A stretch of DNA of 60,256 nt, filler included. It is 5 parts of 5 records of this genome, joined end to end, with 100 filler letters (N's around TTAATTAATTAA, not from the genome) between each part and the next. Parts side by side here need not be neighbours in the genome. Positions count along the whole stretch, not along the records: positions 21,676 to 47,942 come from SRR31156797_19898; 4 more parts are not named here. One strand, given 5' to 3'. The position numbers and the translations under genes are program-made. Position 1 is the stretch's first letter; each line of letters begins with the position of its first letter. The notes under the pieces were generated by a model, which saw only the letters and a program-made list of their open reading frames with translations, had not been told where the DNA came from and searched no databases. Below are positions 21,576 through 49,236 of the stretch, one piece after another.

Positions 21576-21675
21576 NNNNNNNNNNNNNNNNNNNNNNNNN
21601 NNNNNNNNNNNNNNNNNNNTTAATTAATTAANNNNNNNNNNNNNNNNNNNNNNNNNNNNNNNNNNNNNNNNNNNN
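21576..21675. other. Artificial contig linker
   Basis: N44-TTAATTAATTAA-N44. Confidence 0.97.
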
Positions 21676-31301: not shown

Positions 31302-33029
31302 TTACTTAACCTTGCCAGCCTTCCATGCTTCGAGCAGCTTGTCGTAATCGACAGTTTCACCCTTGGGCTTCTCGTTGGCGAGCTTGGCCTTGGGGGAACC
31401 CGGCTTGTTCAGCCAGTATGACTCTTCGCGGGGCTTGTTCAGCTTGGGACCGCAGTCGCCGAGGATGCCTGCACGTTCGAGGCGCATGAGAATCTTGTCC
31501 TGTTCCTTGGCGAGGTTGTCCATGGCGGTGTCGACGGTGACTTCACCGGCAACAGCTTCACCGATGTTCTGCCACCAGAGCTGAGACAGCTTCGGGTAAT
31601 CAGGAACGTTGGTGCCGGTAGGCGTCCAGGCGACGCGGGCCGGGCTGCGATAGAATTCCACCAGACCGCCCAGCTTGGGAGCGCGTTCGGTGAAGGATTT
31701 GTCGTGGATGTCAGAGTTACGAATGGGGGTCAGACCAACGTGGGTCTTCTTCAGGGACGTGGTCTTGGCGACGCAGAACTGTGCGAACAGCCATGCAGCC
31801 TGACGACGTTTGATCGGAGTGGATTTCAGCAGGGTCCAGGAACCGCAGTCCTGATAACCGAGCTTCTGGCCTTCTTCCCAGTACGGGCCGTGCGGGGACG
31901 GAGCCATACGCCATTTGGGTGTACCATCAGCGTTGACGACCGGAGTTCCTTCCTGAACCATGGAAGCGGTAAAGGCGGTGTACCAGAAGATCTGCTGGGC
32001 AACGTTACCCTTGGCAAGGCTGGGGAGGGACTGATAGAAGTCCATGCCCAAAGCACCCGGAGGGGCGTATTTACGGAGCCAGTCCATATATTTGCGCAGT
32101 GCATACTTGGCGGCGGGGCCGTTGGTGGCGCCACCACGAGCAACAGAAGAACCGACAGGGCGGCAACCTTCTACACGGATGCCCCATTCGTCGACAGGCT
32201 TGCCGTTGGGGATACCCTTGTCGCCAGCACCGGCCATGGACAGCCATGCGTCAGTGAAACGCCAGCCGAGGTCCGGGGCTTTCTTGCCGTAATCCATGTG
32301 GCCGTAAATGGCCTTGCCGTTGATTTCACGGACATCTTCACTGAAGAATTCAGCGATATCTTCGTAAGCGGACCAGTTGACCGGAACGCCGAGGTCGTAG
32401 CCATATTTGGCCTTGAAGGCTTTTTTCAGTTCAGGTTTCTGGAACCAGTCATAGCGGAACCAGTACAGGTTGGCGAACTGTTGGTCAGGCAACTGATAGA
32501 GCTTGCCGTCAGGACCGGTGGTAAAGGATTTACCCATGAAATCGTCGATATCAAGGGTGGGCAGAGTGACGGATTTTCCTTCGTTTTCCATCCAGTCGGT
32601 CAGGTTGACCACGTGGCCGGAACGGAAGTGGGTACCGATCAGATCGGAGTCGTTGATGTAGGCATCAAAGACGTTTTCGCCAGATTGGAATTGGACCTGG
32701 AGTTTTTCAATGACATCACCTTCCTGAATCAAGTCATGTGTGACCTTGATACCGGTGATTTCATAGAAAGCCTTGGCAAGCACTTTGGATTCGTACTCGT
32801 GGGTGGGGATAGTCTCAGAGACAACTTTGATTTCCATGCCTTTGAAGGGGGCGGCGGCTTTGATAAACCACTGCATTTCCTTCATCTGTTCCTCTTTTGT
32901 CAAAGTGGATGGCTGGAACTCGTTGTCGATCCATTTTTTGGCAGCCTTGGTGTCGGCAAAACCGACACTGGCGAGGCTGAGGCATGCTACTGTGAGCACG
33001 CCTGTCATCAATAAACGCCGCAACTTCAT
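31302..33029 (-). CDS. glpV: Glycerol ABC transporter substrate-binding protein
   Basis: WIDNEFQPSTL, ETIPTHEYES, TGTNVPDYPKL; 575 aa; gene order matches rhizobial glpSTPQUV. Confidence 0.85.
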   Translation of the reverse strand: MKLRRLLMTGVLTVACLSLASVGFADTKAAKKWIDNEFQPSTLTKEEQMKEMQWFIKAAAPFKGMEIKVVSETIPTHEYESKVLAKAFYEITGIKVTHDLIQEGDVIEKLQVQFQSGENVFDAYINDSDLIGTHFRSGHVVNLTDWMENEGKSVTLPTLDIDDFMGKSFTTGPDGKLYQLPDQQFANLYWFRYDWFQKPELKKAFKAKYGYDLGVPVNWSAYEDIAEFFSEDVREINGKAIYGHMDYGKKAPDLGWRFTDAWLSMAGAGDKGIPNGKPVDEWGIRVEGCRPVGSSVARGGATNGPAAKYALRKYMDWLRKYAPPGALGMDFYQSLPSLAKGNVAQQIFWYTAFTASMVQEGTPVVNADGTPKWRMAPSPHGPYWEEGQKLGYQDCGSWTLLKSTPIKRRQAAWLFAQFCVAKTTSLKKTHVGLTPIRNSDIHDKSFTERAPKLGGLVEFYRSPARVAWTPTGTNVPDYPKLSQLWWQNIGEAVAGEVTVDTAMDNLAKEQDKILMRLERAGILGDCGPKLNKPREESYWLNKPGSPKAKLANEKPKGETVDYDKLLEAWKAGKVK

Positions 33030-33132
33030 ACGTACCTCCGTATGCTGATTAAAATAACACCTCTACCTCTAGTACCTCTTTACAACCGCAGATCTTCTCA
33101 ATGCGGGTTTTGGAAGTGCCATGTGTCGGGGA

Positions 33133-33411
33133 TTACCCCCAGCGCATGACCACAATGAGAAAACACACGGATATTACCGTTGCAATCCAAACACTGAAAT
33201 CAGTCAGTCCTACCCATGACAAATGTATATATGCGCTGCCCAGCAGCCCGATGAAAAGGCGGTCTCCACGAGTTGTGGTCAGCGGCAGTATGCCGCGTCT
33301 GGCCACACAGGGAGAAACCACTTCCCATATTGTCATCCCGATGAGCATCAAAACGATGACGCAAAAAAACCCAGCCGTGACCGGTGTCCATGCCATCCAT
33401 TCCAGATTCAT
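33133..33411 (-). CDS. glpU: Small integral membrane protein (DUF2160)
   Basis: WMAWT..TTRGDRLFIGLLGSAYIHL. Confidence 0.85.
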   Translation of the reverse strand: MNLEWMAWTPVTAGFFCVIVLMLIGMTIWEVVSPCVARRGILPLTTTRGDRLFIGLLGSAYIHLSWVGLTDFSVWIATVISVCFLIVVMRWG

Positions 33412-33426
33412 ATCCGTATCCTTTTC

Positions 33427-34226
<800 letters not shown>

Positions 34227-34230
<4 letters not shown>

Positions 34231-35099
34231 GATTTTTCTCCTGTCCCGACTGCCTGAAGAGCTTGATAGAACAGCCAGCAGAACAACAGGATGATGAGGA
34301 AGTAGATCAACGAGAATGCAGCAGCCGGACCAAGGTCGAACTGACCGACAGCTATTTTGACAAGGTAGATGGACAGGAAGGTCGTTGAGTTACCGGGCCC
34401 GCCGCCTGTGAGGACGAAAGGCTCTGCATAAATCAGGAAGCTGTCCATGAATCGCAACAGCAGGGCGATAGTCAGAACGCCGCGCATCTTTGGGAGCTGG
34501 ATGAAACGGAAAATAGCCCAAGCCGAGGCGCCGTCAATCTTGGCCGCCTGATAATACGCTTCGGGAATGGCCCGAAGCCCTGCGTAGGCCAGCAGGACGA
34601 CAAGTGGCGTCCAGTGCCAGACCTCCATGAGCATCAATGTCGTCCATGCGTCAAATGCATGGGCCGTGTGATCGAACGAAATTCCGGCTCCGTTGACGAG
34701 ATAACCGAACAGGCCGATATCCGGTCTGGTGAAAATGATCCAGATTGTTCCAATGACATTCCAGGGAATCAGCAATGGCAGGGCTAGAATGACGAGACAT
34801 GCGGAAGCTGCCCATCCCTTTTTGGGCATGGTCAACGCAATGGCGATTCCAAGCGGCATTTCAATGAGTAGGACAAGTCCCGAGAATGCCAATTGTCGCC
34901 ATAGGGCGTCATGGAGTCGGACGTCCAACAGGACCTCTTTGAACCATTCGACGCCAACGAAGAATCGCTGCCCCGGCCCAAAGATATCCTGCACCGAATA
35001 GTTGACAACGGTCATCAACGGAATGATCGCACTGAAGGCCACGATGATAAAGACCGGGAGAATGAAAAACCATGCTTTGTTATTGTTCCATTTATTCAC
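34227..35099 (-). CDS. Glycerol ABC transporter permease (rhizobial GlpP equivalent)
   Basis: YYQAAKIDGAS EAA loop; LTGGGPG. Confidence 0.88.
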
Positions 35100-35111
35100 A
35101 GTCGCCTCCCG

Positions 35112-36197
35112 TTATTTGACCAGTCTTTCGTCGCAGTAAATCTTTGTTTTTTCGGGCGGAAAGGTCAGCCAGCATGTACCCTCCGGAATATTCCGGTTAT
35201 CTTTGATTCTGGCTTTGATGTCGTTGTCACCGAATCGAGCTGTGACAATACGACAAAAACCTTGATCTTCGACGCTGACAACTTGAGCGGCAATGCCTTT
35301 CTCAACTTCCGTGTCATGGATTTTAACGTACATGGGGCGAATGCCGATTTTGAGTTTGCCACCTAATCGAGTGGCTTTATCGGCATAAGAAGGAGTCAAC
35401 GGGATGGCTACGTCATTAACCAGAGCCGTACTGTCGGTTACTGTACATTCCATAAAATTCATGCCCGGGCTGCCTATGAAATATCCGACAAAGGTGTGGT
35501 CCGGGTTTTCAAAAAGTTCTTCCGGTGTACCTGTCTGGACAATTTCACCTTCGTACATGACTACTATTTGATCCGCGAAGGTCATTGCCTCCACTTGATC
35601 GTGTGTGACGTAGATCATGGTTAATTTGAATTCTTTATGGATTTCCTTGAGCTTACGTCGAAGATCCCATTTGAGATGCGGGTCGATGACCGTGAGCGGC
35701 TCATCAAAAAGGATGGCTGCGACATCGCTTCTGACTAACCCTCGGCCAAGGGATATTTTCTGTTTTGCGTCAGCGGAAAGTCCGGCTGCCCGTTTGTGCA
35801 AGTCCTGTTTCAGGTCGAGAGCCTCGGCGATTTCATCAACGCGTTTGTTGATGTCCGCCTTGGGCACGCCTCTGTTTTTCAGGGGAAATGCGAGGTTCTG
35901 ATACACCGTCATGGTGTCGTACAGGACCGGGAACTGGAAAACCTGAGCGATATTCCGTTGTTCCGGCTGCATGGCAGATACGTCTTTGTCATCATAAAGG
36001 ATGCTGCCGTGCGACGGTTTCAGCAACCCGGATATGATGTTCAGCATCGTGGTCTTGCCGCAACCTGACGGGCCGAGCAGAGCATAGGCTCCTCCATCTT
36101 CCCAAACCGTGTGGATTCGCTTGAGCGCGAAGTCGTCTTCATCCACCGGATCAGGGCGATAGCTGTGCTTGATTTCCTTGAGTTCAATGCGCGCCAT
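35112..36197 (-). CDS. Glycerol ABC transporter ATP-binding protein (rhizobial GlpT equivalent)
   Basis: GPSGCGKT; variant signature LSADAKQK; ILFDEP. Confidence 0.9.
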   Translation of the reverse strand: MARIELKEIKHSYRPDPVDEDDFALKRIHTVWEDGGAYALLGPSGCGKTTMLNIISGLLKPSHGSILYDDKDVSAMQPEQRNIAQVFQFPVLYDTMTVYQNLAFPLKNRGVPKADINKRVDEIAEALDLKQDLHKRAAGLSADAKQKISLGRGLVRSDVAAILFDEPLTVIDPHLKWDLRRKLKEIHKEFKLTMIYVTHDQVEAMTFADQIVVMYEGEIVQTGTPEELFENPDHTFVGYFIGSPGMNFMECTVTDSTALVNDVAIPLTPSYADKATRLGGKLKIGIRPMYVKIHDTEVEKGIAAQVVSVEDQGFCRIVTARFGDNDIKARIKDNRNIPEGTCWLTFPPEKTKIYCDERLVK

Positions 36198-36209
36198 GAG
36201 ATCTCCCGG

Positions 36210-37289
36210 CTAGTCAGTCTCTGGCGAGAGTATGAGTTCTCCCGCCTCGTTGAATACATAAAAGGCACTCGGATGGACATAGACCGAAACCTGGCTTCCT
36301 GTTTTGTGAATGTGGACGCCATCATCCTGAACGACGAGTGATTCGTCGCCGTGCTTGATGTGAACAAAGGTTTCGGACCCGTTGATTTCCGATAAGGCCA
36401 CTTCGCCCACGATACAGACGTGGTCGTCACTGTCGCAGACCATGCTGAGCTGATTGGAGCGAACGCCGAAAATATAGTTGTCCTTGGGGAGGTCGGCCAT
36501 TGTCGAAGCTTTTTGAAAGGTCAATCCATTGACCATATCTACCGTGCCGTTACTGATCGAACCGTGCATGAAATTGATGGGCGGATCGCTGAAGACTTCG
36601 GCAACCTGAGTGGTGGCGGGGTGCTGATACACTTCGGCGGTTGGTCCGATCTGGAGGACTCGGCCTTCGTGCATGACAATGACATTGCCGCCGAGCATGA
36701 GTGCTTCGGTGGGCTCCGTCGTCGTGTAAACAACAACCGAGTCACGTTCAATGAAGATTTTTTGCAATTCGTCTCGAAGTTCTTCTCTCAATTTGTAGTC
36801 GAGGTTGACGAGAGGTTCATCTAGCAGGAGAAGGTCGACGTTTTTGACTAATGCGCGGGCGATTGCTGTCCGTTGCTGCTGCCCTCCAGAAAGTTCAGCG
36901 GGGAGTCGGTCGAGTAGGTGTTCAATATGCAGCATGGAGGCTGCTTCCATGACACGTCTTTCGATTTCGTCTTTTTTTACGCCGTGAATTTTTAAGGGTG
37001 ATGCGATGTTTTCGTAGATGGTCTGGGACGGGTAATTGATGAATTGCTGGTAAACCATGGCGATACTACGCTTGCGAACGGTGACGCCTGTGACGTCTTG
37101 TCCATCAGCGAAGACGGAACCCGACGTGGGGCGATCAAGGCCTGCCATGATTCGGAGGAGCGAGGTTTTCCCTGCTAAGGTCCGTCCCAGAACCACGTAG
37201 CGAGAGCCAGAATCGAACTCCAGGTTGATCTCGTTGAGATGGACTTCCTGTCCAACCAATTTATTGATGCCTTTGAGCTGTAAACTCAT
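36210..37289 (-). CDS. glpS: Glycerol ABC transporter ATP-binding protein
   Basis: GRTLAGKT, LSGGQQQR, LLLDEP, TOBE-like tail. Confidence 0.88.
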   Translation of the reverse strand: MSLQLKGINKLVGQEVHLNEINLEFDSGSRYVVLGRTLAGKTSLLRIMAGLDRPTSGSVFADGQDVTGVTVRKRSIAMVYQQFINYPSQTIYENIASPLKIHGVKKDEIERRVMEAASMLHIEHLLDRLPAELSGGQQQRTAIARALVKNVDLLLLDEPLVNLDYKLREELRDELQKIFIERDSVVVYTTTEPTEALMLGGNVIVMHEGRVLQIGPTAEVYQHPATTQVAEVFSDPPINFMHGSISNGTVDMVNGLTFQKASTMADLPKDNYIFGVRSNQLSMVCDSDDHVCIVGEVALSEINGSETFVHIKHGDESLVVQDDGVHIHKTGSQVSVYVHPSAFYVFNEAGELILSPETD

Positions 37290-37436: not shown

Positions 37437-38246
37437 CTACTCGGCAACATGGAGTTCGACGTCGTTGTGCTTCATTATCTCAACGAGTTCAGCCGGTGGC
37501 AGCTTGTTAGTGAACATGGCATCAACTTCGCGGATGTTGCCCAGTCTGACCATGGCGTTTCTGCCGAATTTAGTGTGATCTGTGACAAGAAAGACTTTGC
37601 GAGAATTTTCAATGATGGAACGTGCGGCTGTGACTTCGCGATAATCGAAGTCGAGGAGTGTGCCGTCTTTGTCTACACCGCTGATTCCAATGATGCCGTA
37701 GTCGACTTTGAACTGGCGTATGAAGTCAATGGCTGCCTCTCCTACGATGCCGCAGTCCTTGTGTCGTACGATTCCGCCGGAAACGATAACTTCTATGTCT
37801 TTGTTTCCGCTTAATGTCTTGGCAACATTGAGATTATTGGTGATGACACGGAGCTTGTCATGGTGAACTAAGACTTTTGCGACTTCTTCGGTGGTTGTTC
37901 CCATATTGATAAAAAGCGAAGACTTGGTGGGGATGTTTTGGGCAACCAATTTGGCGATGACCTGTTTTTCCCGAAGGCAGAGAATCTTGCGATCAGTGTA
38001 GTCGACGTTTTCCGTGCTGAGTATGGGTCCGGCTCCCCCGTGGTGTCTTTGAAGGAGTCCTTGATCACAGAGCGTATTGATATCTCGACGGACAGTTTGC
38101 GGGGTGACATTGAACTTTGTGGACAAGTCTCCAATGGCAATAAAGCCCCGTTCTCTGACAAGGTCGACTATTTGTTTGTGGCGTATTTGGACGGAGGCGT
38201 GTTTGCCGCCTTTGTTTGTGGGATTGCCTGAATTTTGATCCGACAT
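37437..38246 (-). CDS. glpR: DeoR-family glycerol-3-phosphate regulon repressor
   Basis: FNVTPQTVRRDI HTH, RHHGGA, GTTTEEVA, DHTKFGR; located within the glp cluster. Confidence 0.9.
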   Translation of the reverse strand: MSDQNSGNPTNKGGKHASVQIRHKQIVDLVRERGFIAIGDLSTKFNVTPQTVRRDINTLCDQGLLQRHHGGAGPILSTENVDYTDRKILCLREKQVIAKLVAQNIPTKSSLFINMGTTTEEVAKVLVHHDKLRVITNNLNVAKTLSGNKDIEVIVSGGIVRHKDCGIVGEAAIDFIRQFKVDYGIIGISGVDKDGTLLDFDYREVTAARSIIENSRKVFLVTDHTKFGRNAMVRLGNIREVDAMFTNKLPPAELVEIMKHNDVELHVAE

Positions 38247-38269
38247 AACTCTTCCTTAACTCTATGGTA

Positions 38270-38319
38270 TGTTCAATTGCGAAAATAAATATTGGTGTTT
38301 TCTTGTTCGAAAGTGAAAA
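38270..38319. promoter_or_regulatory. Two putative GlpR operators in the divergent glpR/glpA region
   Basis: TGTTCAATTGCGAAAA (38270-38285) and TGTTCGAAAGTGAAAA (38304-38319). Confidence 0.6.
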
Positions 38320-38502
38320 AAATAATGACGCAATCCCTGTTTTTAGGTATGTTAGAGCTGCTTTTTTGCTTTGTTGCGTTTATAATTTTCTTTTTTACTC
38401 ATAACAGTTTCATTTTTTTGCTACAAGAGAAAATCGAAAGTTGTTGTTTGAATGATCCATTTCTACATGTTTGCAGTTATTTGGGCATAGGGAGCCGTCA
38501 TT

Positions 38503-40092
38503 GTGAAATCACTTCAGACCAGAGTTCTTATATTAGGTGGGGGAGCCACCGGAACCGGTTTGGCCAGAGATTTGGCCCTGCGGGGTGTCCCGTGCCTTTT
38601 GGCAGAACGACGAGATATCAACGCCGGTGCGTCCGGCGGCAACCACGGTCTTCTGCACAGCGGAGCACGGTATGTTGCCTCTGATATGGAAGCCGCTGTG
38701 GAGTGTCGGGAAGAAGGGGCCATCCTCAAGGCCGTTGCTCCTCAGTGTATTGAGGATACCGGTGGTCTTTTTGTCGCTGTTGAAGGTGATGATGAGCAGT
38801 ACGTGGCTGACTTCGAGGGCATGTGTCAAAAGAGTATTATCCCGGCCAAACAGCTTGATCTTGATGAAGCCCGTGAGATTGAACCGTTGCTTTCAGAGAA
38901 ACTTATTTCCGCCTATGCCGTTGAAGACGGTGCTGTTGATCCGTTTATGCTGTCGCTCGACAATATGGCGCACGCAATGACTCTTGGGGCGAAATCGATC
39001 AGAAATGCCAAGGTGGTTGGTTTTACCATGGGCAATGGTCGAATCCAACGGGCGTTGTTTCTGGATGAAACTTCGGGCGAGTCCTTCGAGGTAGAAGCGG
39101 ACCTTATAGTCAATGCAACCGGAGCGTGGGCAGGGCTTATTGCGGCCCTTGCTGGTGCTGAAATTCATATTTTGTATTCCTCTGGCAGTCTGCTCGTGAC
39201 GCAGGATAGGTTGACCAAACGTGTCATCAACAGACTCCGCAAGGCGTCGGATTCAGATATTCTTGTTCCAGGCGGAACCGTGTCTGTTTTGGGGACAACA
39301 TCGGTGACCATCGACTCTCCAGATGATTGCCGTCCGACAGTGGCAGAGACCGACAGGATTATCGAAGACGCTCAGGCAATGATTCCGGTCTTGGCAACAA
39401 CCCGCTATATCCGGGCTTATGCTGGTGTGCGGCCTCTTGTCCTTTCGGGTGAGAGCGGCGACGCGCGGAGTGTCAGCCGAGGCTTTTCCCTTATCGATCA
39501 TGCCCGTGACAATGTGGACAATTTCATCACCATTACTGGCGGTAAGCTGACGACGTATCGACTTATGGCCGAAAAGACGGCGGATATGGTCTGCAGGAAA
39601 CTCGGTGTGAAAGCTCCATGCCTGACGCGAACCGAGCCGTTGCCAGCATCAACTATGGGGCGGTGGACCGAACCGGGGTTAGCTCCAAAATCGTGGGTAC
39701 GGAACCGGGATGAGGATGATCTCATTTTGTGCGAGTGTGAGATGGTGTCACGTAATTCCATTGATTCCATCATTGAAAACATGCCGGGTATGCGTGGTAA
39801 TTCCATGCTCAAGGCCATTGGCATGCGCAGTCGTGTCGGCAAAGGCCCGTGTCAGGGGGGCTTTTGTGGACTGAGGATTACTGGACATCTCTACGACCAA
39901 GGGCATGTGTCCAACGCACAGGGATTGAATGAACTTAAGACATTTGTTGGTCGACGATGGCGCGGTTTTTCACCTGTCTTGTGGGGACTCCCCATGGTGC
40001 AGGCAGACTTGCAGGAAGCCTTGTATTGCGGTGCGCTTGATATGGAACTTGATCATAATACGGATGATTTTACCTGCGAGGATGACGAATGA
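38503..40092 (+). CDS. glpA: Anaerobic glycerol-3-phosphate dehydrogenase subunit A
   Basis: GGGATG, NHGLLHSGARY, GVRPL, GGKLTTYRLMAE, C-terminal BFD-like CECE..GPCQGGFC. Confidence 0.93.
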   Translation: MKSLQTRVLILGGGATGTGLARDLALRGVPCLLAERRDINAGASGGNHGLLHSGARYVASDMEAAVECREEGAILKAVAPQCIEDTGGLFVAVEGDDEQYVADFEGMCQKSIIPAKQLDLDEAREIEPLLSEKLISAYAVEDGAVDPFMLSLDNMAHAMTLGAKSIRNAKVVGFTMGNGRIQRALFLDETSGESFEVEADLIVNATGAWAGLIAALAGAEIHILYSSGSLLVTQDRLTKRVINRLRKASDSDILVPGGTVSVLGTTSVTIDSPDDCRPTVAETDRIIEDAQAMIPVLATTRYIRAYAGVRPLVLSGESGDARSVSRGFSLIDHARDNVDNFITITGGKLTTYRLMAEKTADMVCRKLGVKAPCLTRTEPLPASTMGRWTEPGLAPKSWVRNRDEDDLILCECEMVSRNSIDSIIENMPGMRGNSMLKAIGMRSRVGKGPCQGGFCGLRITGHLYDQGHVSNAQGLNELKTFVGRRWRGFSPVLWGLPMVQADLQEALYCGALDMELDHNTDDFTCEDDE

Positions 40093-41357
40093 CCAAAAGT
40101 GAAGACATATATGATGTCATGGTCATCGGAGCGGGCTTTGCTGGAATGGCTGCCGCGTTTTTTGCTTCGGCGCAAGGACTCAAGGTTGTGCAGACCGGAG
40201 CTACCGGGGGCATAGATTTCAGTACGGGCTTCATTGACCTTATGGGCGTTCATCCCATCGCCGAAGGGAGGCGGTGGAAGAATCCATGGTCAGCCATTGA
40301 AGCCGTGGTGCATGATTGTCCGAATCATCCATATGGGCTGCTTTCCAGTGATGAAATATTCGAATCCGTGGACTTGTTCACCCGATTCCTCGCGGAACAA
40401 GGGTTGGAATATGTTGGTTATACAGATCGCAATACCTGCTCCCTTACTCCGGCCGGAACAATCAAACGAACATATCGTGTTCCCAAAACGGCATGGGACG
40501 GGTCCGTGGCTCTCGGAACAAAGGCCCCGACACTGATTGTTGATTTTCATGGACTCAAGGGATTTAGCGGTACGCAACTTGTTGAGACACATAAGCATCA
40601 CTGGCCGGAGCTCAAAACTGCACGAATACAGTTTCCCGGCGGTCGAGGTGAGTTGTATCCCGAACATATGGCGTGGGCCTTGGCCGACCCGGCTGTTCAG
40701 GAAAAGATGATCGCCGCCATCATGCCTCATGCCGCTGATGTCGAGTATATTGGATTCCCTGCGGTTCTCGGTCTTAATGATCCTCAAAAAGTTGTGGATC
40801 ATCTGGAAGCGTTGTCTGGGAAAAAGATATTTGAAATTCCGACATTGCCACCATCCATTGCCGGTCCTCGTTTGCGTGCGGTTTTTGACCGTGGGCTTCC
40901 CGCTCAGGGCGTTCGCACTCACTCTCAAAAAATGGTGACGGATGTGAGGGAATTGGACAGCGGTATGTTCGAGTTCATGGTGGGGACGGGCGCAGCCATG
41001 CTCCCGGTGGTGGCAAAAAAAGCAATATTGGCCACCGGACGTTTTTTTGGCAAAGGGCTTCGTGCCGAGCGAAAGAATCTTGTTGAGCCGGTGTTTGATC
41101 TTCCTGTTGTGCAGCCTGAAACTCGTGAACAATGGCATAAACAGGATTTTTTTGCGCCGCAGGGGCATTCGGTGAACAGCGCGGGCATAGAGGTCGATGA
41201 AAGGCTACGGCCTCTCGGCCAATCAGGACGCCCTGCGTATGACAATCTTCATGCGGCAGGAGCTGTCTTGGCTCATCATGACTGGATGCGTATGAAATGC
41301 GGAGCCGGGCTTGCCATTGCCACGGCATACAAGGCTGTGAAGGAATTGATGCGATAA
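40089..41357 (+). CDS. glpB: Anaerobic glycerol-3-phosphate dehydrogenase subunit B
   Basis: GAGFAG, FEIPTLPPSIAGPRL, LATGRFFGKGL, CGAGLAIATA. Confidence 0.9.
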   Translation: MTKSEDIYDVMVIGAGFAGMAAAFFASAQGLKVVQTGATGGIDFSTGFIDLMGVHPIAEGRRWKNPWSAIEAVVHDCPNHPYGLLSSDEIFESVDLFTRFLAEQGLEYVGYTDRNTCSLTPAGTIKRTYRVPKTAWDGSVALGTKAPTLIVDFHGLKGFSGTQLVETHKHHWPELKTARIQFPGGRGELYPEHMAWALADPAVQEKMIAAIMPHAADVEYIGFPAVLGLNDPQKVVDHLEALSGKKIFEIPTLPPSIAGPRLRAVFDRGLPAQGVRTHSQKMVTDVRELDSGMFEFMVGTGAAMLPVVAKKAILATGRFFGKGLRAERKNLVEPVFDLPVVQPETREQWHKQDFFAPQGHSVNSAGIEVDERLRPLGQSGRPAYDNLHAAGAVLAHHDWMRMKCGAGLAIATAYKAVKELMR

Positions 41358-41391
41358 CGGCGCACCCGATAGCGGGCAAGAAGGAAGGGGT

Positions 41392-43035
41392 ATGATTTTT
41401 TTTGATATCGGCCTGACCTTGGCACTCACCATATGCGTGATCGGTATTATCTACCGTGTTGCCCGATGGCGCGGGGAATGGACTTCCCGCATGCCACAGC
41501 CTTCTTCCGGTTTTCTCTTGTGGATCGGTCGTGCAGTCAAAGCACTGATTCTTGATGTTGTGCTTTTGGCGCGAAGTGGCAGGACAAGCTTTTTACGGTG
41601 GCTGGCACATAGCCTCGTCTTTTTGGGTTTCATGGGGCTTCTTTTATTCCATGCCATGGACGAGACGGTCACGGCGACCTTTTTCCCTTCCTACGAGTCC
41701 ACCCTTGACCCTTGGCAGTTCCTGCGCAACCTGTTTGGAGCCATGACGTTGGTCGGGCTTGTGCTCATGGTGTATCGCCGGGTGTGTTCAACCAAACTTC
41801 GTTTTTTGACGCATTTTCAGGACTGGGCGGCATTGTTGATTCTCGGTTGTATTATCGTCTCGGGATTCTTTTTGGAGGCATCAAAGATCATGTCTCCAGC
41901 GGTTTTTGATCGGATGACCGATGAATATTTCGTTCCGGGAGAGGTCGGTGATCTGACTGCCTTGAAGGCTTATTGGGCTCATGAATACGGTGTTGTTTTT
42001 TCCGTGGAGTACCCCATGGATGAAGAAACACTCGAACTCGGGGCAAGTCTTGACGAAGACAGTTGCGTCGACTGCCATGCCAACACAGCCACCGCGTTTG
42101 TTTCGCGTCCATTGGCAACAGCCCTTACCCCGGTGGCGTTTGCCTTGAATACGAGCAGGGCGGATCAGGTCTTTTGGTATTTTCATGTCATATTTTGTTT
42201 TATCGCGTTGGCTGCCTTACCGTTTGGGAAATTTTTCCATCCGGTGTCCACGCCGATCAATCTGGTTGTGCGACAAGGGCGGCGGGATGATCTTGAAGAA
42301 TTTCAGCCTTCTGATGTATGTCGGAGCATAGGCATGGATGCTTGCACCCGGTGTGGGGAGTGCAGTCTGCATTGCAGTGTGGCTCCGGCTTTTACGGTTC
42401 TCGGAAATCAAAACATACTGCCTTCGGAAAAACTCGCTTCCCTCAAGCAGTTTCAGACTGGTGAGCTCATATCTCAAGCCGGTCTGACCGCTTTTTCGGA
42501 AGGGAGTCGTATTTGTACGGAATGTCTGCGGTGCACGGATATCTGTCCGGCCGGAATCAATCTTCAGGATTTATGGATTGCATCCAAAGCCCGGATAACC
42601 AAGCTGGCACCGAGTCCCAATGATCTGTTGCGAAATAAAACGGCAACTCAGCGAGCGCGAGTCTTTGATGATTTGTGCAAGTCTTCATCCATTTTGCCAG
42701 CCGTGACCGGGCTTGCGGACGACTCCGCCTCCTATTGGGCCTGTGTGCAGTGCACTACCTGTACGAGTGTCTGTCCAGTGGTTGCGGTTTGCGAAGATCC
42801 ATCACGCGATCTTGATCTTTTGCCGCAACAGATCATGAATTTGCTGCGAATGGGACTCAAGGAAGAAACGCTTGGAGCACGCATGATTTGGAGTTGTACG
42901 ACCTGTTATAAATGTCAGGAACATTGTCCACAGGATATCCGTGTGGCCGACGTCCTTTATGAATTGCGAAATACCGTTGCCGCCCGAGTTCGGGATGGCG
43001 GTGCCAGTTGCGAAGGAAACGGAGAATCTTTGTGA
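41392..43035 (+). CDS. Membrane-bound NarI/HdrE-like plus HdrC-like Fe-S protein with a CxxCH motif
   Basis: About 5 TM helices with His (WLAHS, LFHA, YFHV, KFFHP); CVDCH in a loop; four ferredoxin motifs (CTRCGECSLHCS, CTECLRCTDICP, CVQCTTCTSVCP, CTTCYKCQEHCP). Confidence 0.8.
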   Translation: MIFFDIGLTLALTICVIGIIYRVARWRGEWTSRMPQPSSGFLLWIGRAVKALILDVVLLARSGRTSFLRWLAHSLVFLGFMGLLLFHAMDETVTATFFPSYESTLDPWQFLRNLFGAMTLVGLVLMVYRRVCSTKLRFLTHFQDWAALLILGCIIVSGFFLEASKIMSPAVFDRMTDEYFVPGEVGDLTALKAYWAHEYGVVFSVEYPMDEETLELGASLDEDSCVDCHANTATAFVSRPLATALTPVAFALNTSRADQVFWYFHVIFCFIALAALPFGKFFHPVSTPINLVVRQGRRDDLEEFQPSDVCRSIGMDACTRCGECSLHCSVAPAFTVLGNQNILPSEKLASLKQFQTGELISQAGLTAFSEGSRICTECLRCTDICPAGINLQDLWIASKARITKLAPSPNDLLRNKTATQRARVFDDLCKSSSILPAVTGLADDSASYWACVQCTTCTSVCPVVAVCEDPSRDLDLLPQQIMNLLRMGLKEETLGARMIWSCTTCYKCQEHCPQDIRVADVLYELRNTVAARVRDGGASCEGNGESL

Positions 43036-43889
43036 AGTACGCCTATTTCCCGGGGTGTAAAATCCCTCACCATCTTCCTGAATACGGTGCATCCGTTGAA
43101 GCCGTATGCAAAGCTTTAGCTATTGAACTGGTGCCGCTTGAATTCAACTGTTGCGGCTGGCCTGTGCGGCATGAAAATGAACTGGCTTCAATTTTTTCGG
43201 CGGTACGAAATTTTGCGGTTGCCGAAAAGGCAGGGTTGCCGATTTTTACTCCCTGCAAATGTTGTTTCGGTAATCTGAAATATGCCCAGTCCAGAATGGC
43301 GGAAGACGAAAAACTCTCAGCTCAGGTCGAATCCCTTTTGGTTCAAGATGGTTTGGCGTTACCCAAGTCCATGGATGTTTTTCATATGTTGACAATTTTT
43401 GACGAACAGGTCGGGGCCGAAATCCTCTACCGACGGACCGCAAATCCTTTGGAGGGAGTGAAGGTGGCTTGCCATTATGGTTGTCATGCACTCCGTCCGG
43501 GGAATGTCACTGGGTTTGATGACCCCATGGCCCCGACCGTGTTCGAAAGAATCATGCAGGCCATTGGAGCAGAGCCTGTTGATTGGGATTTACGGTTGGA
43601 ATGTTGCGGATATCCCTTGCGTGGGCGTGATGACACTATTTCCGAAGCCCTGATGCGTAAGAAACTTGAGGATGCGGCTTCGGTTGGTGCTGATGTCATG
43701 GCCACGGCCTGTACGTATTGTCAGCTTCAGTTTGATAAGGAGCGTGACGGGCTTCCGTATAGTGATCCGCTTCGGAAGGCACCGCCTGCAGTGCTCGTCA
43801 GTCAGTTGATAGGTATTGCCTTAGGATTGGAGGCGAATGCGCTTGGACTGGAGAGGAATTGTCTTCCTTGGCAGCCACCTGGTTTTTAA
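43032..43889 (+). CDS. HdrB-like CCG-domain protein
   Basis: YFPGC, NCCG, PCKCC, HYGCH, ECCG, ACTYC; GTG start overlaps the upstream TGA (GTGA) after GGAG. Confidence 0.88.
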   Translation: MKYAYFPGCKIPHHLPEYGASVEAVCKALAIELVPLEFNCCGWPVRHENELASIFSAVRNFAVAEKAGLPIFTPCKCCFGNLKYAQSRMAEDEKLSAQVESLLVQDGLALPKSMDVFHMLTIFDEQVGAEILYRRTANPLEGVKVACHYGCHALRPGNVTGFDDPMAPTVFERIMQAIGAEPVDWDLRLECCGYPLRGRDDTISEALMRKKLEDAASVGADVMATACTYCQLQFDKERDGLPYSDPLRKAPPAVLVSQLIGIALGLEANALGLERNCLPWQPPGF

Positions 43890-43961
43890 GGATGTATCTT
43901 TATGGTATAGACGCAATCATCATCATGAATGTCACGTTTGGGATTGAATAAGGAGAGCGAC

Positions 43962-45473
43962 ATGGCGAAATATATCGGAGCCGTTGATTCCGGGACCACG
44001 AGCAGCAGATTTATTATTTTTGACGAACGTGGCCGTATTGTCGGTCTTGATCAGAAGGAACATGAACAGATTTATCCCAAACCGGGATGGGTCGAACATG
44101 ATCCCATGGAGATATGGAACAATACGCAGGAAGTTATCAAGGGAGCCTTGACCAAGTCCGGTATCAAGGGGTCGGAACTGGCAGCCATCGGTATCACCAA
44201 TCAGCGTGAAACTACGATTGTTTGGGATCGATATACCGGGAAACCTTTCTACAATGCCATTGTCTGGCAGTGTACCCGTACCCACAAAATTTGTAAGGAA
44301 CTCACGGCCGATGGCGGTCAAGATCGTTTTCGCGAGAAGACCGGCCTGCCTATCGCAACATATTTTTCCGGCCCGAAAATCAAGTGGATTCTGGATAATA
44401 TTCCTGAAGCACGTGCCGCTGCCGAAAAGGGTGATGCCATGTTTGGTACCATCGAAACGTGGATCATCTGGTGGCTCACAGGCGGGCCGAAGGGCGGTGC
44501 TCATGTCACTGATGTTACCAACGCCAGTCGGACAATGCTCATGGATCTCAAGACCCTGGAATGGGATGAGGATATTATGAAGGTCATGGGCATTCCTGCC
44601 GAGGGCCTTGCTCGCATTGTGCCGTCATCTGATCAGGCAACATGGGGACCGACATCGGAAAGTGGGCCTCTGGGCGCACGTGTTCCGGTTTGCGGTGCGG
44701 TGGGCGATCAGCAGGCTGCATTGGTCGGCCAGACGTGTTTTGCGCCGGGGCAGGCAAAGAATACTTACGGCACCGGTTGTTTCTTGCTCATGCACACAGG
44801 GCATAAGCCTATTCAGTCCAAGCATGGCTTGATCACGACACTCGCCTATCAGTTCAGCGGACGTAAACCGTCATATTGTCTTGAAGGTTCCATCGCCATT
44901 GCCGGTGCGTTGGTCCAATGGTTGCGAGACAATCTTCAGATGTTTGATTCCGCTCCCGAAGTCGAAGCATTGGCAAAAAAAGTGGAAGATACCGGCGGTA
45001 TGTATATTGTCCCGGCTTTTTCAGGCCTGTATGCACCATACTGGCGACCTGATGCCCGGGGAGTCATGGTCGGCCTGACTCGATATATCAATCGTAACCA
45101 TATTGCCCGTGCCGTTCTGGAGGCCACCGCCTATCAGACCAAGGACATTGTGGAAGCCATGAATAAGGATTCCGGCGTGGTCTTGGAAACCCTCAAGGCT
45201 GATGGTGGCATGGTTTTCAATGAATTACTCATGCAGTTTCAGTCGGATATTCTGGATGTTCCGGTTGTTCGCCCCAAGGTGGCTGAGACCACTTGTCTCG
45301 GAGCAGCCTATGCAGCGGGTATCGCCGTTGGCTTCTGGTCTGGGCGTGAGGAGTTGTACAACAACTGGGAAGAAGACAAGACGTGGCAGCCGGACATGGA
45401 TGAGAAGGATCGGACCGAAGGATACAACGGGTGGAAAAAGGCTGTCGAACGCACGTATGATTGGGTTGATTAG
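43962..45473 (+). CDS. glpK: Glycerol kinase
   Basis: [53 protein letters not shown] before ATG 43962. Confidence 0.96.
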
Positions 45474-45551
45474 GCCAAGTATCTGAAATATGATAGAGCA
45501 AGGCGGTCGAGTGTGGCTGCCTTGTCTTTTTCAGCGTGAGTGAGGCTCGAA

Positions 45552-46670
45552 ATGCAGATGTACACGTCCCCTTCGAAACGAATTCCCATGCTCGATATTG
45601 CCCGTTTTTTCGGTATGATATTGGTTTATTATGGCCATATTATTGAACGGATAATGTATCTCGAAAATCCAACAGCCACTGCTCAATACAAATTTATTTA
45701 TTCATTCCACATGCCCTTTTTCTTTCTTCTGGCCGGGTTCACTCTTGCGCCGGAAAAGATGGTGCTACCTGTGGGGAAGTTCTTCAAAAAGGTGTTGGCT
45801 TCACGACTTGTTCCCTATTTTGTTTTTACCGCCGTATTGGCGATTTTGAGTCTGCTTTTTGTTGGTCATTTCGTGGTTATCGATCTGTCAACTGCAGACG
45901 GGTACCTCAAGGGGATAATCGCGACCCTGTTGGGTTTCCCTGTGTTTAACATCCCTCTCTGGTTTATGGCCTGTTTGGTCTCCGTCGAAATATTGCATTT
46001 CTTTGTCGGCCGATTCCTCAACAGTACGTTTAGGATTCTTGGTGCAGCCATTGCCTTTTATGTTGGGGGATACGCCTTGACCGCGACCATTCAGTTTATT
46101 CCCGGTCCCAATTTTTGGCTTATTCATGAAGCCCTGGTTGTGTATGCCTTTTATCTGGTAGGTGTATTGTTCCGTCGCAACGGCATTATGCTTGGCAGAC
46201 AGCCGCGGTGGCGGCTTCTTTTTGCGACCGCAGTGTGTCTGCTGATTGTGGTGTTTACCTATGATGTGAACGAAGGACCATTCAGACTCTTTGACGCTGT
46301 TGTTATCGTCTTGTCAGGACATGGAAATATTTTGCTTTTCCCGCTCACGGCGTTAGCTGGCAGTTTGATGATCCTTTTGCTTGCGCGAAGCTCAGGTGCC
46401 AACAACTTCCTGATGTTCATGGGAGAAAATGCTTTGATTCTTTTTTGTCTCAACGGCATTTTTTACCATTTTTTCAACGGGCCGTTTGCCGCATGGTTCG
46501 TTGCGACATTCCCCGGTCACAGGATGGCAGTAACAGGCGCGGGAATGGCGTTTACCGTTGTTAGTCTGACATGTTGCGTTCCGTGTGTCTGGTTGCTCAA
46601 CGCCTATGTGCCGCAACTGGTCGGCAAGCCACGGCAGCAAGGGCCGCTTCTTCCCAGATTTTTGCGGTAA
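45552..46670 (+). CDS. Acyltransferase family 3 membrane protein
   Basis: DIARFFGMILVYYGH, IYSFHMPFFFLLAG, PLWFMACL; multi-TM. Confidence 0.85.
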   Translation: MQMYTSPSKRIPMLDIARFFGMILVYYGHIIERIMYLENPTATAQYKFIYSFHMPFFFLLAGFTLAPEKMVLPVGKFFKKVLASRLVPYFVFTAVLAILSLLFVGHFVVIDLSTADGYLKGIIATLLGFPVFNIPLWFMACLVSVEILHFFVGRFLNSTFRILGAAIAFYVGGYALTATIQFIPGPNFWLIHEALVVYAFYLVGVLFRRNGIMLGRQPRWRLLFATAVCLLIVVFTYDVNEGPFRLFDAVVIVLSGHGNILLFPLTALAGSLMILLLARSSGANNFLMFMGENALILFCLNGIFYHFFNGPFAAWFVATFPGHRMAVTGAGMAFTVVSLTCCVPCVWLLNAYVPQLVGKPRQQGPLLPRFLR

Positions 46671-46674: not shown

Positions 46675-47829
46675 TTAAAGCGCCAGATTGAGGATTTCAG
46701 TTAGTTCGGTTTTGCTTAAAAGAACAGGATTCCCTTTCATACTGCTGGCAGCGGCGGCTTTGTCGGCCAGATCGCTGAAATGTGTGGTCTCTACTCCCAT
46801 GTCTTTGAGCGTGGGGATTTTCATGTTCGTACAGAGTTCCCGTACCCATTTGATGCCATCTTCCGGCGTTGCGTTGACGTTTCCGGTCAGTATGACGGCT
46901 GTTTCCGTATATGCATCAAGGCTCGGAGATTTCGGCTCACGTTTCCTGAGAGCGTTGATGTTGATTTCCATTACAGAAGGGAGCAGGGCTGCGCATACAG
47001 CACCGTGCGGTGCCTTGAATTCGCCGCCGAGGGGAGCGGCAAAACCATGGACTGCGCCGAGTTTGGCATTGGATAATGCAATGCCGGAAAAAAGGCTGGC
47101 AAGGGCCATGTCTTCACGGGCTGAACTGTTTGAACCTTCAACATACGCGACATGCAATGAACGGGCAGCGCGAAGCATCCCTTCGCGGCACAAGGCATCG
47201 GTTATGGGATTAGCCTTGTTGGAAACAAACGCTTCCATGAGTTGAGTCAGGGCATCCATGCCCGTGGCAGCGGTCAGACTTGGCGGCATATCCTTGGTCA
47301 GTTCAGGATCGACCACAGCAATATTCGGAATCATTCCCGATGAACGCATACTGACTTTCACGCCATGTCGAGGTGAGAGAATGACGGCGTTAGATGTGAC
47401 TTCCGAACCAGTGCCTGACGTTGTGGGAACCGCGATGAGCGGGACAGGAGCTTGCGTGAGTGGTTGTCTTTTTCCAATGACTTCAAGGTAATCAAGAAGG
47501 TCGGCGTGGTTGGTAAGAAGTGCGGCCAAAGCTTTCCCGGCGTCAAGCACACTCCCGCCGCCAACAGCCACAACGACATCACATCCGGCTTGGCGTGCAG
47601 CTACTGCATTTTGTGAGATTGTTTCTACATTCGGTTCGCCGGATATGGAGATGATATGTGGAGTAAGCCCTTTATTTTTCAGACCGTCGATGGCCCATTG
47701 CACTCGTTTGGAGGAACTGCCGATAACAAGGCAGACTGAAGTCCCCAGCGTTGCAGCCAAGTCGGGAATATCTTTTGAGGAGTTGGGGCCGAAAATTATT
47801 CGTGGAGCGGTGGCGAATTCAAATTGCAT
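46675..47829 (-). CDS. Iron-containing alcohol dehydrogenase
   Basis: GGGSVLDAGK, PTTSGTGSEVT, DALTQ, GAVHG, HGAVC. Start placed at ATG 47829 after AAGGA. Confidence 0.9.
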   Translation of the reverse strand: MQFEFATAPRIIFGPNSSKDIPDLAATLGTSVCLVIGSSSKRVQWAIDGLKNKGLTPHIISISGEPNVETISQNAVAARQAGCDVVVAVGGGSVLDAGKALAALLTNHADLLDYLEVIGKRQPLTQAPVPLIAVPTTSGTGSEVTSNAVILSPRHGVKVSMRSSGMIPNIAVVDPELTKDMPPSLTAATGMDALTQLMEAFVSNKANPITDALCREGMLRAARSLHVAYVEGSNSSAREDMALASLFSGIALSNAKLGAVHGFAAPLGGEFKAPHGAVCAALLPSVMEININALRKREPKSPSLDAYTETAVILTGNVNATPEDGIKWVRELCTNMKIPTLKDMGVETTHFSDLADKAAAASSMKGNPVLLSKTELTEILNLAL

Positions 47830-47942
47830 GGGGTGATCCTTTGGAATCGGTTCTGAAATGCTCATGCCGTTTTGAATATCATTTCGATTCAGTCCCTTCA
47901 AGCGGGGGGGGGGCCTCCGGCGGGCCTACCGGCGGTCGCTTT

Positions 47943-48042
47943 NNNNNNNNNNNNNNNNNNNNNNNNNNNNNNNNNNNNNNNNNNNNTTAATTAATTAANN
48001 NNNNNNNNNNNNNNNNNNNNNNNNNNNNNNNNNNNNNNNNNN
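47943..48042. other. Artificial contig linker
   Basis: N44-TTAATTAATTAA-N44. Confidence 0.97.
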
Positions 48043-49236
48043 TCCTATCATCTCACCCATTTGTGCCATTTTTGCTTGATTGAAAAGAAGCTCTTCTTGG
48101 ATCTTGTTTTGTTTTTGAAGCTCCATATTTAGCTCAGTAATCTGTGTAATATCATTTAAAAATAGCTTGATGATATTATCTTCCAGCATAGTTCCATAAT
48201 GCCCTTTTATTTGATAATACCGTTTATTTATTACTATGGTTTTATGAAGTACCATACTTTGTTTTAGATCTTCTAGTATCTGTTCCCAAAGTTCAGACGG
48301 AATAACTTTTGTGATTGGATCATCAATATGCACATCAAAGTTTGCTTTTGTGATCCCATTAGTCCAAAAGATCACTTGCTCATCACCAAGATCAAGTATC
48401 TCTATCACATACTCTTGTAGTGCATTAAAAGTATCTCGTGCATCATAAAGTTTTGATTCTAAAAATGTGGTATAGTTTCCTTTAAGACCACTTACAAGAT
48501 CTTTGGTGCTTAAGATATGAAAAGTTTCAAACTGATCATCATTTAAAACTATTTTACGAATATTATTGGTTCTCATAATTGTAATAATATCACTTAAAGA
48601 ATAGTTGACATCTGCTTGAATTAACGGGGATCTTGCAAAGTTTTTTACCGCTTGATTTTGGTCTATATTTTGCTGGGCAAGTTTTACGATATCACTCTCA
48701 GAGATGAGTCCATAAGGGATATTCTCTTTTGCTATTAATACTGCTGAGAGTTTATCTTTTACCATACTAGAAAGCACATCTTTTAAGTGAGCACTTTCAT
48801 CAAAGATATTTGCTTGATTATCTGGCTTTAAAAGTTGGTGAATATTGATACTAGTTCGATTGAGTTGATCTTCTAGTTCATAGACGATTCGCTCTTGCTC
48901 TATACACCCTACATATTCCCCTTTTCCATTGATCACAATAACTCTTTTGATATTATTATCGATCATCATACTTAAAGCATGATTTACCATACGTGAGCTA
49001 TGGAGAGTGATAAGATTTTTTAAAGCAAAATCAAAAACCTTTTCTTTAAAACTCACATGCTCTTTAAAAAGTCTCAAAATATCACTTTGGGTAATGATCC
49101 CTGTAGGGATTTTCTTTTTATCTAAGATAACAAGATGGTGAAGATGATATTTTGACATAATATCAATAGCTTCTTGCAAGCTTATATTTCGAGTGATTGT
49201 GTCATTGGATTCATAGATAAAATTCTTTAAAAACAT
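48043..49236 (-). CDS. CBS-domain sensor, probably a histidine kinase (3' truncated)
   Basis: Four CBS repeats (GIITQSDI, GCIEQERI, GLISESDI, ILSTKDL), a PAS-like segment, then LLFNQAKMAQMGEMIG pre-H-box. Confidence 0.8.

Follow-up and report, generated by a model that had tools for sequence, protein, structure and literature searches.

A conserved glycerol-3-phosphate dehydrogenase operon of Desulfobacterota with a two-gene Hdr-like membrane module in place of GlpC

The GlpABC glycerol-3-phosphate (G3P) dehydrogenases of E. coli and Haloferax consist of the flavoproteins GlpA and GlpB and a third component with [4Fe-4S] and CCG motifs, GlpC, and belong to the glycerol regulon. In a window of 60,256 nucleotides (the whole stretch of DNA that was analysed), genes for homologous GlpA and GlpB and for glycerol kinase (glpK) were found in one operon (38503–45473, plus strand) with two genes encoding a NarI-like membrane subunit and an HdrB-like CCG protein. 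This pair differed from GlpC, which has neither membrane helices nor haems, and its CCG protein belonged to the HdrB branch. The window was made of five joined pieces and was not a single molecule; the operon lay on a 26.3-kb contig (21676–47942), for which the closest named protein matches were from Pseudodesulfovibrio. The reading that we favour, with moderate confidence, is a membrane-bound four-subunit G3P:menaquinone oxidoreductase with an anchor of the HdrDE/EMO type, encoded together with glpK in one glycerol-inducible operon. Coupling of GlpAB to an Hdr-like membrane module instead of GlpC had been proposed in a sequence-only reading of this DNA and is supported by the gene order; that reading was correct in outline and is borne out in part, and the feature itself was confirmed as real and conserved.

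The arrangement had not gone unnoticed, since the gene order has been in print since 2009 and appeared again in 2024. Strittmatter et al. (2009) named the membrane Hdr proteins of Desulfobacterium autotrophicum HRM2 HdrF, found HdrF1 (two genes, F1 and F1′) and HdrF2 adjoining glpAB, and suggested that electrons pass to the quinone pool or to Hdr (PMC2702500). By their description, the HRM2 HdrF1/F1′ loci are alike in having glpAB followed by a two-gene membrane Hdr-like protein. Species descriptions of 2024 assigned to P. methanolicus and P. karagichevae a glycerol cluster glpK-hdrBC-glpBARSTPQUV; it was present in 6 of 15 type strains, and both species grow on glycerol with sulfate (PMC11505543, PMC11678503). 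The P. karagichevae cluster corresponded to one of the related loci collected here (L005), with a membrane subunit 61% identical to ours and the same order, including glpR, an ABC transporter and an acyltransferase. In contrast to the present analysis, the HRM2 and Pseudodesulfovibrio papers offer annotation only, the CXXCH motif and haem ligands being unmentioned in their accessible text (0 occurrences of “CXXCH” in that of PMC2702500), and the membrane gene goes simply by the name hdrC in the 2024 papers. Schut et al. (2026) surveyed 4,273 GlpA/FngA contexts, 118 of them without GlpB or GlpC, and the accessible text of that survey held 0 occurrences of Desulfo- taxa or of Hdr-like anchors (PMC13689815).

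Other close counterparts are EMO and EtfD, in which NarI-like five-helix haem-b, HdrC-like di-cubane and HdrB-like non-cubane domains likewise link a cytoplasmic flavoprotein dehydrogenase to menaquinone, and the EMO of Syntrophus aciditrophicus (SaEMO) likewise has a third haem at the distal site (bioRxiv 10.64898/2026.08.18.745454). EMO is a single chain with ETF as donor, whereas the non-cubane domain was encoded here by a separate gene; EMO has two cubane clusters and four would be present here, an extra di-cluster domain being inserted. Unlike EMO, the membrane subunit described here had both distal and proximal histidine pairs and an 89-residue loop between transmembrane (TM) helices IV and V with CXXCH and a methionine, so that an extra haem would be covalently bound. 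HdrDE of Methanosarcina and DsrMK/TmcBC of sulfate reducers resemble this module in pairing a membrane di-haem NarI-like subunit with a cytoplasmic Fe-S/CCG subunit, but in those complexes the donor is quinol, phenazine or a periplasmic cytochrome, and a disulfide or trisulfide is the substrate reduced. Because a cytoplasmic dehydrogenase is attached in the present case, electron flow would probably be outward.

All five genes of the operon were on the plus strand, with two 4-bp overlaps and gaps of 34 and 72 nt, as the short or overlapping junctions of the sequence-only reading had implied. The catalytic flavin adenine dinucleotide (FAD) subunit was encoded by glpA (38503–40092; TIGR03377, 564.4 bits against a cut-off of 552.8); it was 41% identical to E. 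coli GlpA, and the four cysteines of its CxC…CxxxC motif, a BFD-like [2Fe-2S] site, aligned with those of the E. coli protein. The start of glpB (40089–41357), for the second flavoprotein subunit, lay over the glpA stop in a 4-bp overlap (ATGA). GlpB scored 580 bits with NF003725 (cut-off 345) and 231.8 bits with TIGR03378 (cut-off 174.15) and was 29% identical to E. coli GlpB. After the 34-nt gap came the gene for the membrane subunit, an HdrF1-like protein of 547 amino acids (41392–43035) with PF02665 and four CX2CX2CX3C motifs, its start preceded by a Shine-Dalgarno-like GGAAGG. This gene overlapped by 4 bp (GTGA) the HdrB-like CCG gene (43032–43889; 285 amino acids, PF02754 matched twice). 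The GTG at 43032, and not the open reading frame (ORF) start at 43008, was taken as the start of the HdrB-like gene on account of this overlap and of a 285-amino-acid protein of a Pseudodesulfovibrio sp. (P0272) that was 99% identical over its full length. The 72-nt gap led to glpK (43962–45473; TIGR01311, 739 bits against a cut-off of 590), whose start was placed at ATG 43962, with AAGGAG 6 nt ahead, in a frame open from 43929. Directly 3′ of glpK was the sole strong terminator-like hairpin of the region (45498–45525, plus strand), with a 12-bp stem and then a T-rich tail (to 45535). The five genes thus form one tight unit, divergent from glpR and the transporter genes.

The membrane subunit contained a NarI-like PF02665 domain (43.5–46.9 bits against a cut-off of 22.9). 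Hydropathy and an AlphaFold2 model (mean predicted local distance difference test score, pLDDT, 82.8; predicted template modelling score 0.79) gave five membrane helices at residues 2–27, 67–88, 108–132, 142–167 and 257–294, with short connecting helices after helices I and IV, a five-helix layout that is also that of NarI and EMO (bioRxiv 10.64898/2026.08.18.745454). The best fold match in the PDB was EtfD of M. smegmatis (9ojn, E 1.2e-6), with chains of NarI and HdrC next; sequence similarity to 9ojn was marginal (E 0.051 with the TM-domain profile). The same profile matched E. coli NarI at E 0.0017, with H265 and H283, 18 residues apart, aligned to the two haem-ligand histidines in helix V of NarI, one distal and one proximal. 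In an alignment of the window protein with 120 homologues of 45–96% identity, H73 and H87 of helix II and H265 and H283 of helix V were invariant in 121/121 sequences, and so was each of the 16 cysteines in the four CX2CX2CX3C motifs, which lie at residues 318, 375, 451 and 502. Judged by the helix directions, H73/H283 should ligate the proximal haem b and H87/H265 the distal one. Two di-cluster domains followed helix V, and the second (about 443–532) was HdrC-like, matching solved HdrC chains at E 2e-13. The NCBIfam models for QmoC, HdrC and the GlpC N-terminus gave 51–66 bits, far under their cut-offs, and weak family matches to TmcC, HmcE, TmcB and QmoC were all far under theirs as well. 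The NarI/HdrE-like TM domain with four ferredoxin motifs that had been proposed earlier was therefore confirmed; the four haem-b histidines had been overlooked, together with an invariant CXXCH motif.

This motif, C225-V-D-C228-H229 (codons at 42064–42078, plus strand), lay in the loop of 89 residues that joins helices IV and V (168–256; block pLDDT about 86–96). It was invariant in 121/121 homologues and present in 42/42 related loci, including paralogues unlinked to glp. When residues 1–300 were compared by phmmer with 1.84 billion representatives, 316 matches were obtained at E ≤ 0.001, and CXXCH was found in 64/66 of the proteins of at least 480 amino acids among the matches listed. A methionine of the same loop, M175, was invariant in 121/121 homologues and in 43/43 loop segments. 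The loops 28–66 and 133–141 were basic (Lys+Arg to Asp+Glu 5/2 and 2/0), and the loops 89–107 and 168–256 acidic (0/4 and 4/15). The C-terminal Fe-S domains must be cytoplasmic, since they lack an export signal and have to contact GlpAB in the cytoplasm; from this, the loop charges and the five-helix NarI/EMO fold, loop 168–256 was predicted to be periplasmic. CcmE, a marker of periplasmic haem-c attachment, was found in 3/3 related genomes bearing the cluster. On the four haem-b histidines and the CXXCH and methionine of the outward-predicted loop, the membrane subunit was predicted to be a b/b/c cytochrome, in which C225 and C228 probably bind a c-type haem covalently, with H229 as axial ligand; M175 is perhaps a candidate for the sixth ligand. 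A model of the loop by itself (AlphaFold2, pLDDT 79.8) gave 0 matches in the PDB at E ≤ 0.001, and a Pfam search with the loop gave Haem_bd as its only match, a non-significant one (E 0.24). With the TM-domain profile, 12 of 18 listed matches among PDB sequences were c-type cytochromes aligned at CXXCH, all non-significant (E 0.11–4.6). Homology to these cytochromes was set aside, the alignments being motif matches in that range of E values.

The HdrB-like protein matched a solved methanogen HdrB over its whole length (140 bits, E 7e-40), and all ten cluster cysteines of its two CCG domains aligned with those of HdrB2 in 9sfi and were invariant in 20/20 orthologues; it is thus predicted from its sequence to hold two non-cubane [4Fe-4S] clusters. 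One locus, L015, was left out of this cysteine alignment because its HdrB-like stretch (9587–10444 of L015) contained two stop codons, in a possible pseudogene or as a possible assembly error. With TIGR03288 (HdrB) the protein scored 166.9 bits against a cut-off of 345.15, as a homologue and not an equivalog, and with the SdhE model NF042965 154.3 bits against 500. Its similarity to GlpC was much lower: the GlpC models TIGR03379 and NF008369 (cut-offs about 279) gave 33.7 bits for the CCG protein and 45–51 bits for the membrane protein, and by BLASTP the CCG protein matched the C-terminal half of E. coli GlpC at 31 bits and 21% identity. No glpC was found in the window, where E. coli GlpC matched solely the HdrC-like part of the membrane protein (45.8 bits), and GlpC scored above the cut-off in 0/3 related genomes with the cluster (best 141 bits against 279.9). 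This absence of glpC applies to the operon contig and to the related genomes searched.

A quick maximum-likelihood tree of CCG proteins was built from 52 rows, after removal of 7 duplicate rows and of 4 rows with BLAST alignments of fewer than 200 columns, with support from the Shimodaira–Hasegawa-like approximate likelihood-ratio test (SH-aLRT) alone and with one GlpC on a very long branch. The 38 glp-linked rows formed their own group (SH-aLRT 94), with four rows from loci unlinked, or not visibly linked, to glp as sister, followed by two HdrB paralogues of one Desulfovibrio genome. The GlpC of E. coli was placed with HdrD-like paralogues, split from the HdrB-like group by a branch of 99% SH-aLRT. 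An origin of the pair as a simply split GlpC, which the sequence-only reading had named among the outcomes that would tell against it, was rejected, because the CCG protein was nearer to HdrB by NCBIfam scores, by BLASTP scores and in this tree.

A synteny survey in Desulfobacterota had been suggested earlier as a check, and the pairing of GlpAB with the module proved to be conserved. A pattern scan in which each species was represented by a single genome, with neighbours detected by tblastn with the window proteins, yielded 43 loci, labelled as Desulfovibrionales, Desulfobacterales or Syntrophobacteraceae or carrying old “delta/Proteobacteria” labels of metagenome-assembled genomes. An upstream flank of 1.3 kb or more was available in 35 loci, and in 32 of them glpB immediately preceded the membrane gene; the HdrB-like gene followed the membrane gene in 41/42 (none was detected in L023), and glpK came after the pair in 35/43. 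The eight loci without glpK were three at a contig edge (L008, L029 and L040), two that lacked it although flank was present (L019 and L022), and L035–L037. These last three, with membrane subunits of 37% identity that retained CXXCH, were also the exceptions without glpB; their modules (L035, 2700–8405; L036; L037, 3859–13689) lay beside a gene for an HdrA-like protein of 936 amino acids, and L037 also had a formate dehydrogenase of the selenocysteine type (split at the likely selenocysteine codon) and an HdrD-like protein. These contexts suggest that the b/c anchor has been re-used with other cytoplasmic redox modules. Three single-chain relatives of 711–716 amino acids (P0180, P0190 and P0238) were also observed, with the TM domain and its CXXCH, only two cubane motifs and two CCG motifs, and are HdrF-like fusions of the module.

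Two further genome sets, many of them fragmented, were searched: 301 genomes sampled evenly over the phylum and 151 genomes of the order. At the level of the phylum, a relative of the membrane protein (E ≤ 1e-40) was present in 48/301 genomes, GlpA in 71/301 (55 above the cut-off) and GlpC above the cut-off in 36/301, mostly adjoining GlpA; GlpA adjoined a relative of the membrane protein in three genomes only (G001, G184 and G214). In the order, the relative was present in 33/151 genomes, at 44% identity or more in 27, and GlpA lay within 3 kb of it in 24 of these 27; the other three (G421, G395 and G399) had it at contig ends or had GlpA on another contig. Several genomes carried paralogues away from GlpA. 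The same order also contained a canonical glpABC (L066, genome G082) and three loci (L063–L065, genomes G308, G304 and G373) in which ABC-transporter genes came directly after glpR/glpAB and the surrounding 14 kb contained neither an Fe-S nor a CCG gene. Since canonical glpABC occurs in the same phylum and order, the Hdr-like module and GlpC are alternative modules, and the former is not a drifted GlpC. GlpAB accordingly has three or more alternative exits for its electrons, of which the Hdr-like pair is one; within part of the Desulfovibrionales and Desulfobacterales this pair is common.

Read from the gene content, motifs, conservation and synteny observed, the favoured G3P:menaquinone oxidoreductase would work as follows. 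GlpA, with FAD and [2Fe-2S], would oxidise G3P; the HdrB-like subunit would receive the electrons at its two non-cubane clusters, with the GlpB flavin as the probable intermediate, and they would then pass to the four cubane [4Fe-4S] clusters in the cytoplasmic domains of the membrane subunit. From there they would reach the proximal haem b (H73/H283) and the distal haem b (H87/H265), flanked by haem c, and menaquinone would be reduced at the outer haem site, the menaquinol supplying sulfate respiration through its Qmo and Dsr complexes. Two genes would in this way do the job of GlpC with an HdrDE/EMO (“HdrF”) architecture split in two. The path is drawn by analogy with EMO, where the donor flavin sits on the non-cubane domain, and with FngABC, where the flavin of the B subunit is central (PMC13689815); in EMO structures the electrons enter by the non-cubane domain and exit through the haems to (methyl)menaquinone (bioRxiv 10.64898/2026.08.18.745454).

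Complex modelling, which had been suggested as a check, covered one pairing: GlpB, predicted against the HdrB-like chain plus residues 300–547 of the membrane subunit, scored 0.56 in 3/3 runs, with contacts agreeing at 89% or more between runs and a partner pLDDT of at least 80, and the controls, including one with the HdrB-like chain replaced, scored 0.00 as the best of three. In calibration, the mark was reached by 58/80 solved complexes and 2/110 mismatched pairs, but scores of 0.60 or less accounted for only 7/80 solved complexes and for both of the passing mismatches. Docking of GlpB on the HdrB-like/Fe-S module is thus weakly supported by the prediction. Several points weigh against the menaquinone reading. 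Transfer from G3P to menaquinone is exergonic and needs no transmembrane wire. EtfD of M. smegmatis works with the proximal haem alone (bioRxiv 10.64898/2026.08.18.745454). The strictly conserved haem-b pairs and CXXCH hint at a task at the outer face beyond plain quinone reduction, and strict conservation of a wire that quinone reduction does not need keeps alive the alternatives of electron export and disulfide reduction. Desulfomicrobium baculatum has a homologous cluster and does not grow on glycerol, and the authors who described the cluster call its function “not yet confirmed” (PMC11505543). In the three Desulfovibrionales loci L063–L065, all 3/3 of which have glpAB without an adjacent Fe-S partner gene, GlpAB can apparently use partners encoded elsewhere. 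A literature search, in which most subscription journals were outside reach, yielded no biochemical, genetic or structural study of the arrangement, no data on its expression or on mutants, and no mention of haem c, in agreement with the earlier statement that no biochemical characterisation was known.

The alternative that survives best, possible but unlikely in our judgement, is a quinone-independent export, in which the b/b/c wire would send G3P electrons, aided by the membrane potential, to the periplasmic cytochrome c3 pool and onward to periplasmic hydrogenases or formate dehydrogenases (in syntrophic or fermentative growth) or back into the cell by way of Tmc, Hmc or Dsr. The invariance of both CXXCH and M175 in a loop predicted outside and rich in acidic residues (4 Lys+Arg against 15 Asp+Glu) speaks for it, as do the cytoplasmic Fe-S domains and the CcmE found in 3/3 host genomes. 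All loci moreover came from lineages labelled Desulfovibrionales, Desulfobacterales or Syntrophobacteraceae, groups rich in periplasmic cytochrome c3. SaEMO supplies a precedent, its outward flow being driven by the proton-motive force (bioRxiv 10.64898/2026.08.18.745454), but by the same comparison a single buried haem c beside the distal haem b may be part of the quinone site, like the “twin” haem of that enzyme. Fusions of NarI-like domains to multihaem cytochrome c, which form Atlas clusters with scores of 0.81 and 0.79, are leads only. Against export, the loop model resembled no known cytochrome c fold (0 PDB matches at E ≤ 0.001), the operon contained no cytochrome c gene, and the covalent attachment of the haem is itself a prediction. 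Still less probable, in our estimate, is the view that a three-haem wire of a new kind (b, b and covalent c) hands G3P electrons to periplasmic cytochrome c and bypasses the quinone pool altogether, with the membrane potential lifting them from about −190 mV to the potentials of cytochrome c3, hydrogenase or formate dehydrogenase. If that were true, the module, which also occurs next to HdrA-like and formate dehydrogenase genes, would serve Desulfobacterota as a general port for electrons from cytoplasm to periplasm.

A disulfide or trisulfide reductase, in which a catalytic HdrB-like subunit would reduce DsrC or a thiol carrier with G3P, menaquinol or both as donor, ranks lower and seems rather unlikely. 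Its attraction lies in the HdrB-like subunit, which was nearer to catalytic HdrB (140 bits, ten cysteines) than to GlpC (31 bits) and kept both CCG motifs intact in 20/20 orthologues, whereas the distal cluster is degenerate in EMOs that only transfer electrons (bioRxiv 10.64898/2026.08.18.745454). Intact CCG pairs are, however, also found in GlpC and in SdhE-type proteins (SdhE model, 154 bits), for which a quinone or electron-transfer role is presumed (bioRxiv 10.64898/2026.08.18.745454). The layout of NarI-like, Fe-S and CCG parts is that of HdrED and DsrMK, the sister clade of the two-gene module adjoins HdrA-like and formate dehydrogenase genes, and all hosts found belonged to sulfate-reducer lineages; but the cluster contained no gene for DsrC or a thiol carrier. 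A donor bound to the non-cubane domain, as ETF is on EMO, would moreover occupy the disulfide site, and the weakly supported docking of GlpB did depend on the HdrB-like chain (0.00 when it was replaced).

In a bifurcating variant, which we consider improbable, G3P oxidation would be split, an exergonic branch leading through the Hdr-like module to menaquinone and an endergonic one by way of the GlpB flavin to NAD+. Both flavoproteins are true homologues of their E. coli counterparts, for which Schut et al. (2026) proposed bifurcation, but by the same account it has been demonstrated for no GlpABC (PMC13689815). Binding of NAD by GlpB is a proposal, and the variant refines the menaquinone model rather than replacing it. 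That the pair is a mere neighbour, an independent Hdr-like membrane complex sharing the glpAB transcript, is very improbable: relatives of about 37% identity do occur without glpAB beside HdrA-like genes in 3/35 flanked loci (L035–L037), and paralogues lie away from GlpA in several genomes, but the 38 glp-linked rows group as a separate clade in the quick tree (SH-aLRT 94), translational coupling is found inside the operon, between glpB and glpK, and the host genomes lack GlpC.

Upstream of the operon, glpR (37437–38246, minus strand), for a DeoR-family repressor with HTH_DeoR and DeoRC domains, was divergent from glpA; it scored 319.7 bits with NF008154 (cut-off 331), and its position was kept in related loci. 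The AT-rich intergenic sequence (38247–38502) was read as the divergent control region of glpR and glpA, and a promoter is presumed there. A scan for the sigma-70 consensus called no promoter-like site in it and found 12 sites overall against a mean of 9.4 in shuffled sequence, which is no excess. Beyond glpR were five genes for an ABC transporter of the glycerol/G3P type (31302–37289, minus strand; Pfam SBP_bac_1, BPD_transp_1 and ABC_tran). By Pfam these encoded a solute-binding protein (31302–33029), two permeases (33427–34230 and 34227–35099) and two ATPases (35112–36197 and 36210–37289), all on the minus strand; a UgpC-like NCBIfam match of 268 bits was under the family cut-off. Transporter genes were likewise present upstream in most related loci and are named glpSTPQUV in the described glycerol cluster (PMC11505543). 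Downstream of the glpK terminator was a gene for an acyltransferase-3 family membrane protein (45540–46670), found after glpK in most Pseudodesulfovibrio clusters too (related loci; PMC11505543), and the last gene of the contig encoded an iron-type alcohol dehydrogenase (46675–47901, minus strand).

The pieces of the window were separated by spacers of the form N44-TTAATTAATTAA-N44, read in the sequence at 5496–5595, 13636–13735, 21576–21675 and 47943–48042, the last of which marks the end of the operon-bearing contig. The G+C contents of the five pieces were about 0.59, 0.30, 0.27–0.30, 0.50 and 0.28, with jumps at 3/4 spacers, including a drop from 0.50 to 0.31 at the 48-kb spacer. The pieces are separate contigs, probably of the same bin, and perhaps come from more than one organism; given the spacers and the jumps in G+C content, the operon finding is confined to the contig at 21676–47942. 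ORFs that cross a spacer, such as 47995–49236, are unreliable at the spacer end. A second, unrelated Hdr-like set was observed at 9687–13293 on a piece of 30% G+C, where a 571-amino-acid ORF was followed by an HdrC-like stretch (about 11862–12092) and by an HdrB-like ORF (12409–13293) that was 31% identical to the glp-linked one.

Electron entry from cytoplasmic substrate dehydrogenases (for lactate, glycerol-3-phosphate and acyl-CoA) into the sulfate-reduction chain of sulfate reducers has largely been deduced from gene neighbourhoods. The operon described here offers a compact and genetically tractable case, with one substrate, one dehydrogenase and a dedicated anchor, in cultivated strains that use glycerol. 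New in this work are the predicted haem b/b/c anchor and the place of the module as one of three GlpAB partners in the same order. The three options of that order (GlpC, the Hdr-like module or no neighbouring partner) form a natural comparison set. If the covalent haem c is real, the membrane subunit would represent a previously undescribed b/c type within the NarI/HdrE/EMO family and could serve to tell quinone reduction at the outer face from contact with periplasmic cytochromes.

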